A DNA stretch of 64,000 nucleotides from a virus. Lineage: Duplodnaviria; Caudoviricetes. The stretch lies in IMG/VR virus record IMGVR_UViG_3300044852_000015, positions 160,001 through 224,000 of that record, one strand, 5' to 3'. Positions 4,040 through 11,269 of the stretch are shown piece after piece (position 1 is the first letter of the stretch; each line of letters begins with the position of its first letter). A program made the translations under genes and the position numbers. The notes below the pieces were generated by a model. The model was not told where the DNA came from and made no database searches. It worked only from the letters and a program-made list of their open reading frames with translations.

Positions 4040-4450
4040 TTAATTACCGGCGCTGAGTTCTACTTGGTCGTAACCGTTCGAACCCAACAGTGCCAGAATC
4101 TGATCCCAGTCCGAAGGTTTGACCCCAGAGATCTTGGCGTTGATCACCGTGTAGTCAGACAACACGATGCTCGATTCCTTAATCCACGGCAAACCCAGGA
4201 TCTGGCGTTGACCAGAAGGGAACTCAATCCGTACGTAGAGGTAGGCGTCAGGGTCGTTGGGCGTACCGCTAGGCAGTGAGCCGAACACGTTGGCGTGGAT
4301 CTCATCAACCCCAGTACCCAAGTCGCGGGCGGTGGTGGAGTCGATGACACCGAGAACCTTGACGTTCTTGAACTGGGAGTTCAGTACGGCGGTTGGCCAT
4401 ACCGAGAAACTCACAACAGACTTTTGAACCAGTTTGTCTTGTGTAGCCAT
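4040..4450 (-). CDS. Conserved phiKZ-like hypothetical protein
   Basis: 136-aa ORF with phage-like codon usage; last gene of the early operon. Confidence 0.75.
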   Translation of the reverse strand: MATQDKLVQKSVVSFSVWPTAVLNSQFKNVKVLGVIDSTTARDLGTGVDEIHANVFGSLPSGTPNDPDAYLYVRIEFPSGQRQILGLPWIKESSIVLSDYTVINAKISGVKPSDWDQILALLGSNGYDQVELSAGN

Positions 4451-4782
4451 GAGTATGGAAACTCCTGAAACTCAACTAGGACCAACCCGCTAAGGTTAAT
4501 CAATTTGATGGAATGAAGAGTACCCCTAACGAGTCGCCGGTAAAGTAGTTCCTCGCGCATCCCTTCGACGGTGTCCCAGAACAACTCTAGGAGGTCGTGG
4601 TCTAGCGTGCGGGTGTCGAGATCGAATGGATCTTGTAACCCTAAAACCATTTTCACCAACAATTCAAAATCCTCAGGCTGACACTCATCTTCGCCCATGG
4701 CGTCGAAGGTGGTAGCACTCAGGGTCTTGTAAATCGCTAGGGCCTCAATTAAGTTGGTGGACACGAAAGCAGCACGACCCAC
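4411..4782 (-). CDS. Hypothetical protein (small-protein array)
   Basis: GTG start after a GAGG RBS; tightly packed in the operon. Confidence 0.6.
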   Translation of the reverse strand: MGRAAFVSTNLIEALAIYKTLSATTFDAMGEDECQPEDFELLVKMVLGLQDPFDLDTRTLDHDLLELFWDTVEGMREELLYRRLVRGTLHSIKLINLSGLVLVEFQEFPYSWLHKTNWFKSLL

Positions 4783-4793
4783 ATTAACCTCAC

Positions 4794-5147
4794 TTAGCCA
4801 ATAAATTCCAGGATAATGGTGGAACTCACCAGCGACTGGAAACGGTACATCAGTTGACCGTCCGGTTTGTAGAGCTTCATCTGTGTCATACACTTCAGAA
4901 GACTCAGTCCGTATTGCTTCAAAGCGTTGGCCATGATCTCACCATCAGTGGTGAACGCACCGTCTACGGCTTTGGAATTCAATACTAACAAACAGTAACG
5001 ATCTAACTCGCTCATGTTATTACCGTCAGACAAGTGAGTAATTACATTTCGAGTCTCTTGAACTAGGTCATACCCCACCACTTCCATCATCGACATGGTG
5101 CTACGGAACTGCTTCACGGCAGCGGCGCTATTCAGTGCGACATTCAT
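4794..5147 (-). CDS. Hypothetical protein (small-protein array)
   Basis: 117-aa ORF, co-oriented and packed. Confidence 0.7.
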   Translation of the reverse strand: MNVALNSAAAVKQFRSTMSMMEVVGYDLVQETRNVITHLSDGNNMSELDRYCLLVLNSKAVDGAFTTDGEIMANALKQYGLSLLKCMTQMKLYKPDGQLMYRFQSLVSSTIILEFIG

Positions 5148-5186
5148 AATTCACTCGTCATAAAGGGAGGGGTGCCGAAACACCCC

Positions 5187-5603
5187 TCACCAGTAAGATT
5201 CAACCAAGACGTTACCACCAATCCATTGACGGGTTAAACGGTATCCGAAACCTGGGGTTTTGAAGTACTGACTAGTCATGTCCGAGATCAGCATGTGGAT
5301 CTCTAGCGCAAGGTTCGTCAGGTTATGTAGGGCGATGGCTTCATCGTCAGTCAGTTCGCTGAGGTTCTGTTGCCCCTTGACATTACAAAGGAAGTGATCC
5401 TCTATAATGCCCATCACGGTCCACGTCTTATCGTAACGGATGTGGAGGTCAGAGATGCTGAAGGAGAGTTCAGCTAACCCTTGTAGGCTAACGTCATGCT
5501 CCAGCAGGTAGGGTTCCAGATGCCAGTAGTCCCGGAGGATTCTACTCACCGGGATCAAGATGGGATTTGAACGGGCAATTTTAAGGTCACTCATGATGGT
5601 CAC
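5187..5603 (-). CDS. Hypothetical protein (small-protein array)
   Basis: 138-aa ORF, co-oriented and packed. Confidence 0.7.
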   Translation of the reverse strand: MTIMSDLKIARSNPILIPVSRILRDYWHLEPYLLEHDVSLQGLAELSFSISDLHIRYDKTWTVMGIIEDHFLCNVKGQQNLSELTDDEAIALHNLTNLALEIHMLISDMTSQYFKTPGFGYRLTRQWIGGNVLVESYW

Positions 5604-5621
5604 TCACTCGAGTGCATCGGG

Positions 5622-5993
5622 TTAACAGCGAATCAAGTCTACGATGTGTCCGTGCTTCGGGGCCAGTCGTAGGTCGAAGTCGTAGTTCCCGTATTTAAGT
5701 AACGGGTGTAGGTAGCGAGCCACTGCTTTCTGGATACGGATGTAGTCTTCTTCGTAAACCATCAGTTGTGCACGATGGGTCATGAAGTAGGCGTATTCCA
5801 ATTCAGTGAGGTGTTGGACTAGGAAGTCATCCATAGAACAGATCACGCTTTCGTCGTAAGCACTAGGGTCTCGTGTGAGTTCCCCATAGATCACGGCTTG
5901 AACGAATTCGTCCCGATCCACACCGAGTTGCTCCAGAATACATTTATCCACCGCTGGGAGTAATGTGTCTCGGAGGTAGAAGCGTATGGTCAT
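5622..5993 (-). CDS. Hypothetical protein (small-protein array)
   Basis: 123-aa ORF with AGGAG RBS. Confidence 0.7.
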   Translation of the reverse strand: MTIRFYLRDTLLPAVDKCILEQLGVDRDEFVQAVIYGELTRDPSAYDESVICSMDDFLVQHLTELEYAYFMTHRAQLMVYEEDYIRIQKAVARYLHPLLKYGNYDFDLRLAPKHGHIVDLIRC

Positions 5994-5994
5994 G

Positions 5995-6489
5995 TCAGAC
6001 TCCTAGGTATTCACGTAAGCCTGATGCTACCCAGTCACCGTTCTCCAAACTACTCTCTACATCCTTCCTCAGGAGTTCGATATGGTTCTGGGGGTTGTGG
6101 GGGCGACACCGTGCCAATTGTAACAGCTTGATGTCACCTCGTGGGGTCAGATCAAAGTGCCAACTCCAATCATCAGCATTCTCTTTGATCATTCTCCAGA
6201 TGTAACGTTTAATGAAATCAATAGCTTCCTCCACCATATCCTCAACTTCTTCTTGAGGGATCTTGTCGGAGTAGCTACGGATCTGATTCACCACAATCTC
6301 ACGAGCTGCCACCACGTTGCCGTAAAAGCAGTTCTCCACCGTACCTGAAAGAATCCCTATTAGGTTCAGATAGTTAGCACCAACGCCCAAGTACGGACGT
6401 AGACGACCTTCCAACTGCTTAATGATGGGTGTCCCAGGTATGACGTACGTCGCCGCGAGAGTAATGCCAATCCCAAATTCGGTAGTCAC
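5995..6489 (-). CDS. Hypothetical protein (small-protein array)
   Basis: 164-aa ORF; start uncertain because it overlaps the upstream gene. Confidence 0.65.
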   Translation of the reverse strand: MTTEFGIGITLAATYVIPGTPIIKQLEGRLRPYLGVGANYLNLIGILSGTVENCFYGNVVAAREIVVNQIRSYSDKIPQEEVEDMVEEAIDFIKRYIWRMIKENADDWSWHFDLTPRGDIKLLQLARCRPHNPQNHIELLRKDVESSLENGDWVASGLREYLGV

Positions 6490-6961
6490 CTTTGAACTCC
6501 AACATCAAGTTATTGCCTAAGGGCTTGATCACGCAGACCTTCCACGTAGGTTCAGTCAGCAACTTCATCATGATCTGGTTTACTCCACCCGCAATGGGGT
6601 CGAGTACTTGGTTATCCAGTTCCGAGAAGAAGCAGTCGCCTTCACCACGACTCACGGGTTGCCCTACTACTTGCTCGTACCCAGGCATCAATCGAGCCAG
6701 TGCACCAGCGATGTAACCTACTTCAAAGAATTCACGAGGGTAGTCACCAAATACTCGTGACAACTTACGGGTATTCATTTCCAACTCGTACCACTGGAAC
6801 CAATGGCGCAGTTCCCGACAGACAATCGCTTGAGCCAACAGGCGACATTTGTTGACAGTGATATTAGGCACCATCTCAGGATGGCCGGCTGACAACAAGA
6901 AGTTATCAAAGTGATACTTCAGGGTAAGCGCTGTAGCATCAACAGGGAATAGGAAGTTCAT
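6419..6961 (-). CDS. Hypothetical protein (small-protein array)
   Basis: 180-aa ORF, packed. Confidence 0.7.
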   Translation of the reverse strand: MNFLFPVDATALTLKYHFDNFLLSAGHPEMVPNITVNKCRLLAQAIVCRELRHWFQWYELEMNTRKLSRVFGDYPREFFEVGYIAGALARLMPGYEQVVGQPVSRGEGDCFFSELDNQVLDPIAGGVNQIMMKLLTEPTWKVCVIKPLGNNLMLEFKGDYRIWDWHYSRGDVRHTWDTHH

Positions 6962-6971
6962 TGGGTAGCCT

Positions 6972-7328
6972 TTAAAGGTACAGATACAAACCCGTGGGTC
7001 TGATCATCAACGTCAATTCACCTTCTGGAATCAAGTAGTGGTTACACGCCTTGATCTTTCGGTAAAGCTGAGTGCGTAACAAGTTTTGCTTGTCTAGCTG
7101 GTGGATGAGTTTGTACACGTCTGTTGGAGCAGTGTCCTCTCGGAACATTAACAGCAGCGTACTTTCGATGCAGTCTTTGAGCCACGTAGTCTCGATGGTG
7201 ATCATCAACCACTGTGGATCGTGTTGGTGTAATAGATGTCGGAACTGAGGAGTACTCAGCGCATCCCGTATCTCGCAGTGTAACATGACCTGCATGTTAC
7301 GGTAATCGGTTACTAGCTGAAAGTCCAT
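6972..7328 (-). CDS. Hypothetical protein, first gene of the early operon
   Basis: 118-aa ORF about 35 bp downstream of an early-promoter-like motif. Confidence 0.7.
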   Translation of the reverse strand: MDFQLVTDYRNMQVMLHCEIRDALSTPQFRHLLHQHDPQWLMITIETTWLKDCIESTLLLMFREDTAPTDVYKLIHQLDKQNLLRTQLYRKIKACNHYLIPEGELTLMIRPTGLYLYL

Positions 7329-7349
7329 CGTTCTAACCTTTCTGAAGGT

Positions 7350-7385
7350 TTGTTCAATTGGATAATATAGGTCTCAAACTTATTA
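7350..7385 (-). promoter_or_regulatory. Early (virion RNAP) promoter, TATATTAT variant
   Basis: AAGTTTGAGACCTATATTATCCAATTGAA matches the other TATATTAC sites and their flanks. Confidence 0.65.
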
Positions 7386-7467
7386 GGATGACCTGTATGC
7401 TCTCTACTCTATAACATCAGGGGTTGATGTGAACTTATACACGGAGTCGCTCACACGAGCTTACAGA

Positions 7468-7511
7468 GGGCATAAAGCCCCTCACCGGATAACCAGCAAG
7501 GGGCTTTGTGC
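7468..7511 (-). terminator. Terminator closing the RNA island (TTATGCC class)
   Basis: AAAGCCCCT...AGGGGCTTT stem followed by TATGCCC on the minus strand. Confidence 0.75.
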
Positions 7512-7514
7512 TTT

Positions 7515-8310
7515 ACACTGGCGTCGGTCAGCTATCTGTGAGTGGAGTCAGGTCCCCTCTCGGCCAACCTAGTGGGGTCGGAGTAGCCAGGCATGTTTTC
7601 CCACCGAGCGCCCCTGACGGCGCAAGGATTACGGCTAGAACTTACGCACCCCTCCAATTGCCCGGCTCGGCTGGTAAAGGTAGGATTCCAATGCGTAAGC
7701 GAAGTGCCGAAACACTTCCCCAAAACCATTCGACAAAACTGGCCCATTCGATCTGAATGGTTTTGAGGCTGCGTTCAAGCGTAGGCCCAACCACATTTAG
7801 GCGCGGAGAGGGCGGGCTGTTGCACAACTTGAACCCTTCGCGGGGGTCCCGTATCCTTTACATCGGGTCTGAGTGCGAGGCAGGTTCCAATGTTTCCTGT
7901 AGTACGTCTGCATTCCAGGATGAGGTTGCGGACGCTCAGCCCTTACCGGGCAGAGATTCATCGCTCCACGGGTTCAGCCGAGAGCAACGATTTAAGACCC
8001 CTGATCCTACCGGCTCTCTGGACAGAGGAGTCACTAGGTTTTGACCGTGGTCAGGGGAATTCAAGCTACCCTCTCTCTTTGAGCTGTCTACACTTCCACA
8101 ATGACTCGGGGTTTGCCCAAGGTCGTGATTTGGGGTTTGGTCCTAAAAGTAGTAACCATTCCTACGACAGACAGGGGATTAGCCTGTGAGGGTACAACAT
8201 AGGGTGAGTGGGAAAGCCTAGACCTTCCAGACAGTAGTGTGACCCGACGGGTTGGAGTCACCTGTCCTAGTGGGTAGATAAAGTCCACTTGGCGTTACCG
8301 CTACACTCAC
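7515..8310 (-). ncRNA. Large structured non-coding RNA candidate (~800 nt, one RNA or several)
   Basis: No credible ORF; many helices (GTGAGTG/CACTCAC, CCCCTGA/TCAGGGG, CAAAACCATTC/GAATGGTTTTG, CTTACGCA/TGCGTAAG); GTAA and TTCG tetraloops and G-U pairs favour the minus strand. Confidence 0.6.
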
Positions 8311-8312
8311 TT

Positions 8313-8768
8313 TCATTTGACGCCGCACCAACCTTTCTTGGTGCCACCGTCGTACGCAACTGCAAGACCATTCTTGATCAACAGTTGCGCTATATCAATA
8401 TCGTCTACCATAACTTTGGCGACGACTCTGAAGTACTTGTCGCGATCAGGAGTCACCAGTTTAATGGTAGACGCTGAGTCGATGTACTTCTTCAGGAACA
8501 ACCGAGCTTGACGAGCCTTGGCTTTCTCAGTGTCTTGGTCAGCGACTGCTTTACAAGTACTGTGCATCTCTGGGGCGTCGATCCCCATGAGACGAATACC
8601 TACGTTTTTACCAAAGAGGTCAGGGACATTTGGGATGTTCACGTAGATGGTGTCGCCGTCGTAGACTTTCACGACTTGTTTCGGTGACAATGACAAGTCA
8701 CTATAGGCGTAGACGCTGAACGAAGCCAGAGTCAGGACCAACATTGTGAGGATATTGCGGATGTTCAT
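8313..8768 (-). CDS. Thermonuclease (SNase-family) protein with signal peptide
   Basis: VYDGDTI, IRLMGIDAPE, DKYFRVVA and LIKNGLA motifs; hydrophobic N-terminus ending VYA. Confidence 0.9.
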   Translation of the reverse strand: MNIRNILTMLVLTLASFSVYAYSDLSLSPKQVVKVYDGDTIYVNIPNVPDLFGKNVGIRLMGIDAPEMHSTCKAVADQDTEKAKARQARLFLKKYIDSASTIKLVTPDRDKYFRVVAKVMVDDIDIAQLLIKNGLAVAYDGGTKKGWCGVK

Positions 8769-9015
8769 GATTAAGCTCCAAAGGATATACAACATACTAT
8801 CCTTTGGTTTACAGAAAGGGTGCCTTCTCTCTACGTCGGGAAGGGTTATGTTCCGTTGCGCAGTACCATGACCTCGGTTGACCGAGAGAAGACATTACTC
8901 ATTTACCCCATTAGTTCCCTTATCCCTGATTACCCTGCGCGTCAGGTCGAACGTAGATAAGGTAGGCGCGACAATGTCGCCTCGTTTTACTTCTGTTCCC
9001 TAAGGAACCTTCTAA

Positions 9016-10450: not shown

Positions 10451-11269
10451 TTATTGAGGACGGCGGTTGTAGTTCACAACCTTGACTTCGAGTTCAATGA
10501 ACAACTCCATCGGGTAATCGTCCGGGAGGTTCACCGACACCGAAGTATTGAAGGTTGCCGGGTTGATACCGATGCTGAACGGGGCTTTGGCAATGTTGCC
10601 CAACCAGCCGTTGATGATCCACTCGCGCTGATGGAGAATAGGTCGTGAATGGTTGATTGCAACCTCCACACCGTCACGGGTGACGATGCGGATCAGCTTG
10701 ATGGACTCAATGGAGTCAGTCAAGTCTGTGTCTTTACCGAGGGCTTGAATCAAGCCATGGAGGTTCATACGGGAACCATCCTTCAGCGGGATGCGAACCA
10801 CGTCAGGACCTAGAGCTTCCACAACCTCTTCCAGGATCTGCCAGTCGTCAGCCAGTTGATCCGACTGTGCCGGAATCCACGGAGTGAACATCCCCTGAGC
10901 AGTTTTCATGCCGATCCATGGGGCGTAGGTCACGTTGATGTCAGCGCCCAAGATGCGAGCACCAACGTCGTAATGTCCAGCACCAACATACACCAGCCAC
11001 ATGTTCTTACCGTTCCACGAAGGACGGGTAACGCGCTTGCCTTGCTTCAGAGCTTCGATAGCGAGACCGAAGTTCAGAGCGTTGCACGGACGGTAGCTGT
11101 CCTCGAACACGTCTTTAGGCGACCAGGACTGGTGACCGTTGTCGTATTCCACAAGGTAGCCTTCATCGGCACCGTTTTCGTCAGCGGGAAGTTCCCAGCC
11201 TTTGAGTTGGTTGTAGTCCAACCGAGACATCGGAGTTCCGATAACCTTCTTGGTACCAATGTAGTTCAT
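10451..11269 (-). CDS. DUF2829 (Tad2-like) domain protein with extra N- and C-terminal regions
   Basis: NFGLAIEALKQGKRVTRPSWNGKNMW...PWIPAQSDQLADDW is the DUF2829 signature; preceded by the common YIGTK...EGYLVEY...SWSPKDVFE domain. Confidence 0.8.
   Translation of the reverse strand: MNYIGTKKVIGTPMSRLDYNQLKGWELPADENGADEGYLVEYDNGHQSWSPKDVFEDSYRPCNALNFGLAIEALKQGKRVTRPSWNGKNMWLVYVGAGHYDVGARILGADINVTYAPWIGMKTAQGMFTPWIPAQSDQLADDWQILEEVVEALGPDVVRIPLKDGSRMNLHGLIQALGKDTDLTDSIESIKLIRIVTRDGVEVAINHSRPILHQREWIINGWLGNIAKAPFSIGINPATFNTSVSVNLPDDYPMELFIELEVKVVNYNRRPQ

Follow-up and report, generated by a model that had tools for sequence, protein, structure and literature searches.

To our knowledge, very few non-coding RNAs longer than 600 nt have been described from bacteria and phages, and each of them so far (GOLLD, ROOL, OLE, HEARO and raiA) has turned out to do something unexpected. 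RNAs other than tRNAs also occur inside tRNA transcription units: T4 species 1 and 2 (rnaC/rnaD) are stable RNAs of 120-140 nt that are co-transcribed with phage tRNAs, and MALAT1/mascRNA undergoes tRNA-punctuated maturation. GOLLD and ROOL are RNAs of phages and prophages, of unknown function, that are often encoded near tRNA islands (PMC12286853). Both assemble into RNA-only cages through kissing loops and A-minor contacts, the ROOL cage being an octamer; the symmetric kissing loops of OLE and GOLLD use palindromes such as GGCC, and OLE functions as a ribonucleoprotein (PMC12286853).

The window analysed here is a 64-kb stretch of DNA that corresponds to bases 160,001-224,000 of a 238-kb IMG/VR record of a soil phage. 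It contains, on its minus strand, a structured non-coding RNA gene of about 840 nt (8312-7473, with the 5' end at about 8312) that lies 4.3 kb upstream of the DNA polymerase gene. All eight tRNAs and the genes surrounding the RNA are on the same strand, and the RNA is the terminal unit of the tRNA/RNA island in every relative. The polymerase is of the 'divergent family B' type (Pfam PF20286, E 5e-243), and its closest GenBank relatives belong to phiKZ-like jumbo phages of Xanthomonas, Burkholderia, Ralstonia and Pseudomonas, at just 39-44% identity. From this kinship we infer an uncultivated phiKZ-like jumbo phage and treat it as such; we likewise infer that the phiKZ-like group hosting the RNA is of the nucleus-forming kind. 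In the literature on chimalliviruses we found no paper that describes a large non-coding RNA there. The island also encodes a 272-aa protein with a Tad2-like (anti-Thoeris sponge) domain (10451-11269, minus strand), whose gene occupies the matching relative position in the distant relatives L043, L049 and L058.

Table 1. Features of the RNA gene and of its immediate flanks, in window coordinates.
Feature	Coordinates	Strand	Evidence or remark
Whole RNA gene, long-tailed form, ~840 nt	7473..8312	-	5' boundary A(A/C)GUGAG identical in all homologues; 3' terminator hairpin, then CUUUAUGCC
Domain 1, five-way junction closed by 7-bp P1 (8310-8304 / 8210-8204)	8204..8310	-	MFE fold reproduces the junction
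Domain 2, three-way junction, closing helix 8194-8188 / 8073-8067	8062..8201	-	Covariation
Hairpin insert of long-form relatives	8029..8061	-	Gap in 7 short-form sequences
Domain 3, variable helices around invariant motifs	7699..8028	-	Alignments; covariance model R2 built here
Long-range or pseudoknot helix, 7925-7917 with 7857-7849	7849..7925	-	91-99% of cells paired vs <=57% slid
Longest arm, ~25 bp, invariant palindromic GGCC tip loop (7744-7741)	7710..7776	-	Includes CCAUUC/GAAUGG
Hairpin GAAGUGU-UUCG-GCACUUC, marking the end of the conserved core	7701..7720	-	12/12 sequences fold it, with four stem sequences
Long-form 3' tail, with helix CUUACGCA/UGCGUAAG and second CACUCAC	7509..7700	-	Nearly invariant among long forms
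Terminator hairpin GCCCCUUGCUGG/CCGGUGAGGGGC, then CUUUAU	7473..7508	-	In L007 another stem sequence, pairing kept
Staphylococcal-nuclease-like ORF between tRNA array and RNA	8313..8795	-	Pfam SNase, 2e-12; missing in most relatives, where tRNA-Leu abuts the RNA
Boundary element outside the RNA: promoter-like block and leader of the next gene	7330..7472	-	Conserved in 7-14 relatives

The RNA resembles GOLLD in its length (about 800 nt for GOLLD, 840 here), in being encoded by a phage in or beside a tRNA island (eight tRNAs here), sometimes directly downstream of a tRNA, and in its organization into several domains with a conserved half, a variable half and conserved loops. It differs from GOLLD, whose 3' region is universally conserved and whose 5' region is less so, in that the 5' 615 nt or so are conserved here and the 3' tail varies; its carriers are phiKZ-like jumbo phages from soil, compost and food metagenomes. 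With ROOL (RF03087) the short form shares a length of about 600 nt, an origin in phages or prophages near tRNA islands, a pseudoknot and the lack of a known protein partner, but the helices and motifs are unrelated. OLE is likewise a large ornate RNA, whose dimer is joined by a symmetric kissing loop with a palindromic core such as GGCC, and the longest arm of the present RNA is tipped by GGCC; this tip never varies, which places the analogy outside the reach of covariation. Unlike the present RNA, OLE is bacterial and membrane-associated, and works with Oap proteins. The likeness to the T4 RNAs and to MALAT1/mascRNA is that of a non-tRNA RNA within a tRNA transcription unit, one end of which would be made by tRNA-processing enzymes, although the present RNA is five to six times larger than the T4 species.

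Searches with Rfam 15 at the gathering score and at E<=10, using long and short forms, returned chance-level matches only, with none to GOLLD, ROOL, OLE, HEARO, RNase P, group I/II introns, tmRNA, 6S or self-cleaving ribozymes. A sequence-only reading of the stretch had likened it to GOLLD and ROOL, and had proposed comparison with the covariance models of GOLLD, ROOL, OLE, RNase P and group I/II introns. Size and setting uphold the likeness, but none of these models matches, even at E<=10. On this comparison, which leaves outside it the 8,495 unnamed IMG/VR candidates of PMC10690425, the RNA is a new family of the same loose kind as GOLLD and ROOL and not a member of either.

The RNA comprises a conserved core of about 615 nt, divided into three domains, and a 3' tail that occurs in three forms, for a total of 650 to 840 nt. 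Domain 1 is the multi-way junction that had been read from the window's sequence at the 5' end, and all the motifs named there are found on the minus strand: GUGAGUG pairs with CACUCAC to form P1, which encloses the arms GCG-GUAA-CGC, AGUGG/CCACU, GGACAG/CUGUCU and GGAAGGU/GCUUUCC. The MFE fold of 8312-8062 gives exactly this junction, arms included, followed by the second domain. P1 covaries (U-A in 15 of 23 sequences, C-G in 7 and U-G in 1), as do three pairs of P5, and the loop AUCUACCC (8279-8272) and CCCGUCGG are invariant. In domain 2, six of the seven pairs of the closing helix show 8-11 double changes each among the 23 sequences. This domain is dense in invariant bases, including GUAGAC (8091-8086) and CAAAUC, and in the L043 and L046 clades a different sequence forms its inner hairpin and pairs in the same way.

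Domain 3 is built around the invariant motifs UCGCA (7878-7874), a GCGAA loop (7841-7837), CAAGUUGU (7831-7824) and GCAGCCU (7772-7766). The hairpin capped by GCGAA has changes at five of its six pairs in the 23 sequences. The helix between 7925-7917 and 7857-7849 shows compensatory change in two to three pairs, for instance C-G in 13 and U-A in 9 of the 23 sequences; because it crosses a local hairpin predicted on a smaller alignment, it may be either a pseudoknot or a true nested helix. Double changes are observed in 8 of 13 pairs of the longest arm, and its GGCC tip is present in every sequence. GAAUGG does occur twice nearby, as had been pointed out in proposing a switch, but the switch finds no support, since the duplicate is private to this phage and the outer CCAUUC/GAAUGG pairing is part of the covarying long arm. 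The hairpin with the UUCG loop at 7720-7701, also picked out beforehand, recurs with differing sequence in each of the 12 homologues examined. Several invariant segments are complementary to each other (AUCUAC/GUAGA, UCGC/GCGA, GCUUG/CAAGU and GUUGU/GCAGC) and are candidates for tertiary or inter-molecular contacts, their invariance leaving no covariation signal.

The 3' tail is about 230 nt long here, about 110 nt and replaced in short forms, and almost absent in L042. A single compensatory change, spotted by eye in the alignment, was seen in the CUUACGCA helix. The second CACUCAC (at about 7535), for which pairing with the 5' end had been suggested, is a real motif, but it is found in long-tailed forms only and does not follow the U-A to C-G change of P1. 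This alternative pairing shows no covariation and is not supported either. The region originally delimited, 7515-8310, is likewise real, except that the RNA passes its left edge slightly to reach the terminator hairpin at about 7508-7473.

The fold is supported by comparison with relatives. In 12 full-length sequences with 181 consensus pairs, 91.3% of the cells are paired, against 35-46% when the 3' partners are slid; cell counts overstate independent events because the aligned sequences are related, and pair counts together with slid controls are the safer measures. Compensatory change is present in 78 of these pairs, compared with 14-26 in the slid alignments, and the covariation score is 0.375 instead of 0.06-0.10. 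A more conservative consensus on 18 core sequences retains 94 pairs, with 97.2% of cells paired (a count inflated by the same kinship) versus 30-49% slid, 40 pairs with compensatory change versus 7-10 slid, and a covariation score of 0.389 versus 0.03-0.10 slid, which was reached by none of 500 shuffles. The minus strand is fixed as the RNA strand because G·U pairs far exceed A·C pairs (15.9% and 2.1% of cells, respectively).

Single-sequence folding energy, for which the sequence-only reading had called for dinucleotide-shuffled controls, is unexceptional and barely beats shuffles, an outcome close to the one named there as a refutation. The whole RNA has a z of -1.6 (2 of 20 shuffles as good; plus strand, z +0.4), the 5' 251 nt a z of -1.2 (30 of 200 shuffles as good) and the 3' 248 nt a z of -2.3. 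The case for the RNA therefore rests on the comparison with relatives, and it is this evidence that shows the fold. With covariation in 23 homologues and no conserved ORF, the proposal of a giant structured RNA at the tRNA cluster holds, and we consider it very probable that the locus encodes a genuine large structured RNA of a new family.

The description of the stretch as free of ORFs holds only loosely, as ORFs of up to 99 aa on the plus strand and 71 aa on the minus strand exist. None of them is conserved in place or length on either strand: from one relative to the next, the longest ORFs change strand, position and length. Those found in this stretch of the window have no match in Pfam or PHROGs at E<=1, and indels among relatives are not multiples of three. 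A protein-coding reading was rejected on these three grounds.

We collected 23 distinct sequences of the RNA. Six related jumbo-phage contigs in IMG/VR carry it, as do about 20 contigs from metagenomes, ENA and Logan. The six IMG/VR contigs were reached through the polymerase and a downstream 118-aa gene, and are 57-85% identical in the RNA region. A DNA pattern for domain 2 led to ten metagenome loci, and homologues of the downstream 118-aa protein led to 17 ENA/Logan loci from food, compost-type and other metagenomes. One neighbouring protein is indexed in 32 blocks of the assembly collection, from which 24 contigs were examined. The wider family was reached only via this protein, the first DNA pattern being too clade-specific; a looser second pattern recovered the same six IMG/VR contigs and no others. 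Two covariance models were built, R1 on the 5' 251 positions and R2 on 187 positions of domain 3. All full copies score 158-293 bits with R1, one copy cut at its 5' end (L045) scores 30.5 bits, and R2, with 75-198 bits, finds all family members and nothing else. Six further loci returned by a third DNA pattern fit neither model and were counted as chance matches.

Outside this set, R1 and R2 found nothing significant in ten remoter phiKZ-like genomes with polymerase identities of 36-63% (R1 on ten whole genomes, R2 on five of them), blastn found no match among GenBank phages, and a DNA pattern scan found none in 185,579 prokaryote genomes. The phage's own genome holds no second copy. The family is real and, as judged from these searches, limited to a single clade of uncultivated phiKZ-like jumbo phages. 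Downstream of the RNA lie small paralogous genes (4411-7328, minus strand; 117-180 aa; without Pfam or PHROG family) of variable copy number, and several relatives carry an extra copy of the 118-aa gene immediately past the RNA (array compared in L042-L044 and L058-L061).

In comparisons with relatives in which the polymerase four-fold sites agree at 40-49%, domains 1 and 2 are still 70-76% identical, a sign of selection. The middle of the RNA changes roughly as fast as neutral sites but preserves its pairing. Compared with L006, this middle is 64% identical while the four-fold sites of the polymerase are 75% identical, meaning that the middle is the more diverged. Blocks of domain 3 also cluster the sequences differently than the flanks do, the UUCG hairpin of the window being shared with L007 and other blocks with L023. 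Together, the excess divergence and the discordant blocks suggest block exchange by recombination between RNA variants.

The sequence A(A/C)GUGAG at the 5' boundary is constant in all homologues regardless of the upstream neighbour. At 16 loci this neighbour is tRNA-Leu(UAA), and the RNA starts 1-2 nt past the encoded CCA. The other neighbours are tRNA-Ser(UGA) at one locus (L058), a 216-nt gene-free gap past tRNA-Ser(UGA) at another (L064), a staphylococcal-nuclease-like ORF in this window and at six other loci, an HNH endonuclease ORF in L051, and the hairpin of a preceding RNA module in L023, L042, L043 and L044. Directly upstream of the RNA there is no shared or conserved promoter-like sequence, the only common bases being the few at the junction. 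Comparison of L008 with L034 places the nuclease cassette precisely between CCA and the RNA, with ACCA at both cassette ends. The junction is a recurrent landing site for single-gene cassettes (8313-8795 on the minus strand here, L008:4617-5121, L051:1320-1886 and L060:699-1156), which carry either a staphylococcal-nuclease-like ORF, whose N-terminus is hydrophobic, or an HNH_3 endonuclease.

The simplest reading of this arrangement is that the RNA would be co-transcribed with the tRNAs as the 3' end of the island transcript, and that the nucleases responsible for 3' maturation of the preceding tRNA would set free the 5' end of the RNA. Such tRNA-linked maturation cannot be general, because an ORF and not a tRNA precedes the RNA here and in several relatives; where an ORF is inserted, as in this window, the RNA would be the 3' part of an mRNA unless cut elsewhere. 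Cleavage by RNase P at G+1 is conceivable, since the helices of domain 1 are connected as in a class-II tRNA, with a 7-bp closing stem, a 2-nt UA linker and four arms, the last contiguous with the closing stem. This topology alone is no proof of mimicry. The idea that domain 1 is a tRNA mimic was dropped, as the likeness is one of topology only and the domain is missed by ARAGORN and by RF00005 (E<=10). The loop of the last arm (P5) reads UUCG, CUAG, UUAG or UACG in different sequences and is thus not a T-loop.

At the other end, the boundary block of about 140 nt that follows the terminator is more conserved than the RNA itself (7-14 relatives). It contains a TTGACA-type hexamer, a spacing of 16-17 nt and TATAGAG, as well as CCUAUAUUAUCC, and a promoter-like match falls at 7433-7406. 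TATAGAG is followed by GACCUAUAUUAUCCAA. CTATANTAT is not a general promoter motif, because it has just one copy in the 64-kb window.

As for function, the mature RNA may be stable and compact, and may work in trans as an architectural RNA comparable to GOLLD and ROOL. The invariant loops (UCGC/GCGA, AUCUAC/GUAGA and the palindromic GGCC tip) would then make tertiary or inter-molecular contacts, and the RNA, possibly self-associating, might serve the tRNA and translation role of the island or a role in counter-defence. This architectural or self-associating mechanism is the best available guess and a tentative one. The invariant GGCC tip and the complementary UCGC/GCGA loops are no more than hints when set beside the GOLLD and ROOL cages, and a four-base GGCC loop capping only 3 bp would be ill suited to kissing as long as that stem stays closed. 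The whole account, from structured RNA to architectural role, is probably the best explanation, the last step keeping its own, tentative standing. A bolder version, which we regard as speculative and unlikely, is a third, independently evolved self-assembling phage RNA, forming a dimer or a closed multimer through the GGCC tip and the UCGC/GCGA loops, made from the tail of a tRNA operon, and escorting or capturing tRNAs or shielding them from host anticodon nucleases; alternatively, domain 2 might be the core of a new ribozyme class.

In the main alternative, possible but on the doubtful side, the RNA works within a ribonucleoprotein, or as a decoy or sponge, and its conserved core binds a phage or host protein (ribosomal, tRNA-processing or a defence nuclease) as a scaffold or an inhibitor. 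The many invariant single-stranded motifs of domain 2 would suit such binding, OLE works as a ribonucleoprotein (PMC12286853), and the island also holds the Tad2-like anti-defence sponge and many tRNAs. However, no protein gene is present or absent in step with the RNA, the SNase-like and HNH neighbours are sporadic insertions, and Ro60/TROVE, reverse transcriptase and RtcB are absent from the genome.

The constant position of the RNA at the end of the island, next to a tRNA 3' end, together with its terminator and the lack of a promoter of its own, would also suit a cis-acting end piece of the tRNA operon, as a trailer against 3' exonucleases, a guide for processing of the last tRNA, or an insulator from the next promoter, with no function in trans. 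This is improbable: neither a terminator nor a stabiliser would need anything like 650-840 nt, some 100 conserved pairs, a long-range helix and loops that never vary, the core is retained where a nuclease or HNH gene parts it from the tRNA, and the RNA in the same slot of a sister clade (see below) has a promoter-like sequence of its own and no tRNAs.

A ribozyme, either self-cleaving at the 5' boundary or acting in trans as an RNase P-like processor of phage tRNA precursors, would account for a boundary that is sharp whatever its context, and the cloverleaf connectivity of domain 1 makes a possible RNase P substrate. We hold this reading to be very unlikely, because the Rfam models of ribozymes, RNase P and introns all fail to match at E<=10, no CUGANGA core is found in any of the 12 sequences, and domain 1 escapes ARAGORN and the tRNA model and has a variable P5 loop that is no T-loop. 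A hammerhead was rejected specifically on the absence of this core from 12 of 12 sequences and of an Rfam match, and RNase P RNA and group I/II introns on the lack of an Rfam match, the element being bounded by a stop codon or tRNA 3' end on one side and by a terminator on the other. Finally, that the stretch works at the DNA level, as an RNA-primed replication origin or a packaging site, or is a protein gene that has decayed or escaped recognition, readings to which the polymerase gene 4.3 kb away and the ORFs of up to 99 aa could lend some colour, is barely credible given the strand-specific pairing (G·U 15.9% vs A·C 2.1%), a terminator that precedes any putative origin and the single copy per genome on the one side, and indels not in threes, ORFs that differ in every relative and no protein-family match on the other.

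The RNA is thus a well-supported new family in the niche of GOLLD and ROOL, the tRNA islands of phages, in another phage lineage and with an unrelated fold. That an unrelated fold in a different lineage occupies the same niche lends weight to the view that phages have repeatedly arrived at a giant RNA beside the tRNA island as the answer to a problem yet to be identified. Further work can draw on 23 natural variants, on the three tail forms found in nature and on a defined core of about 615 nt, and the family's conserved junction with the tRNA 3' end provides a handle on the maturation of such RNAs.

In a sister clade, with a polymerase 62% identical, the same slot upstream of the conserved promoter block is occupied by another structured RNA of about 440 nt (L012:5661-6124, also in L013-L016). 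This RNA has its own promoter-like sequence and a terminator, is accompanied by no tRNAs, and shows compensatory changes in 26 of 150 predicted pairs. It has CAUUCCGUAGGUCGGGGUAGCGGUU in common with the ORF-free stretch that heads the RNA island of the window (13211-13168, minus strand).
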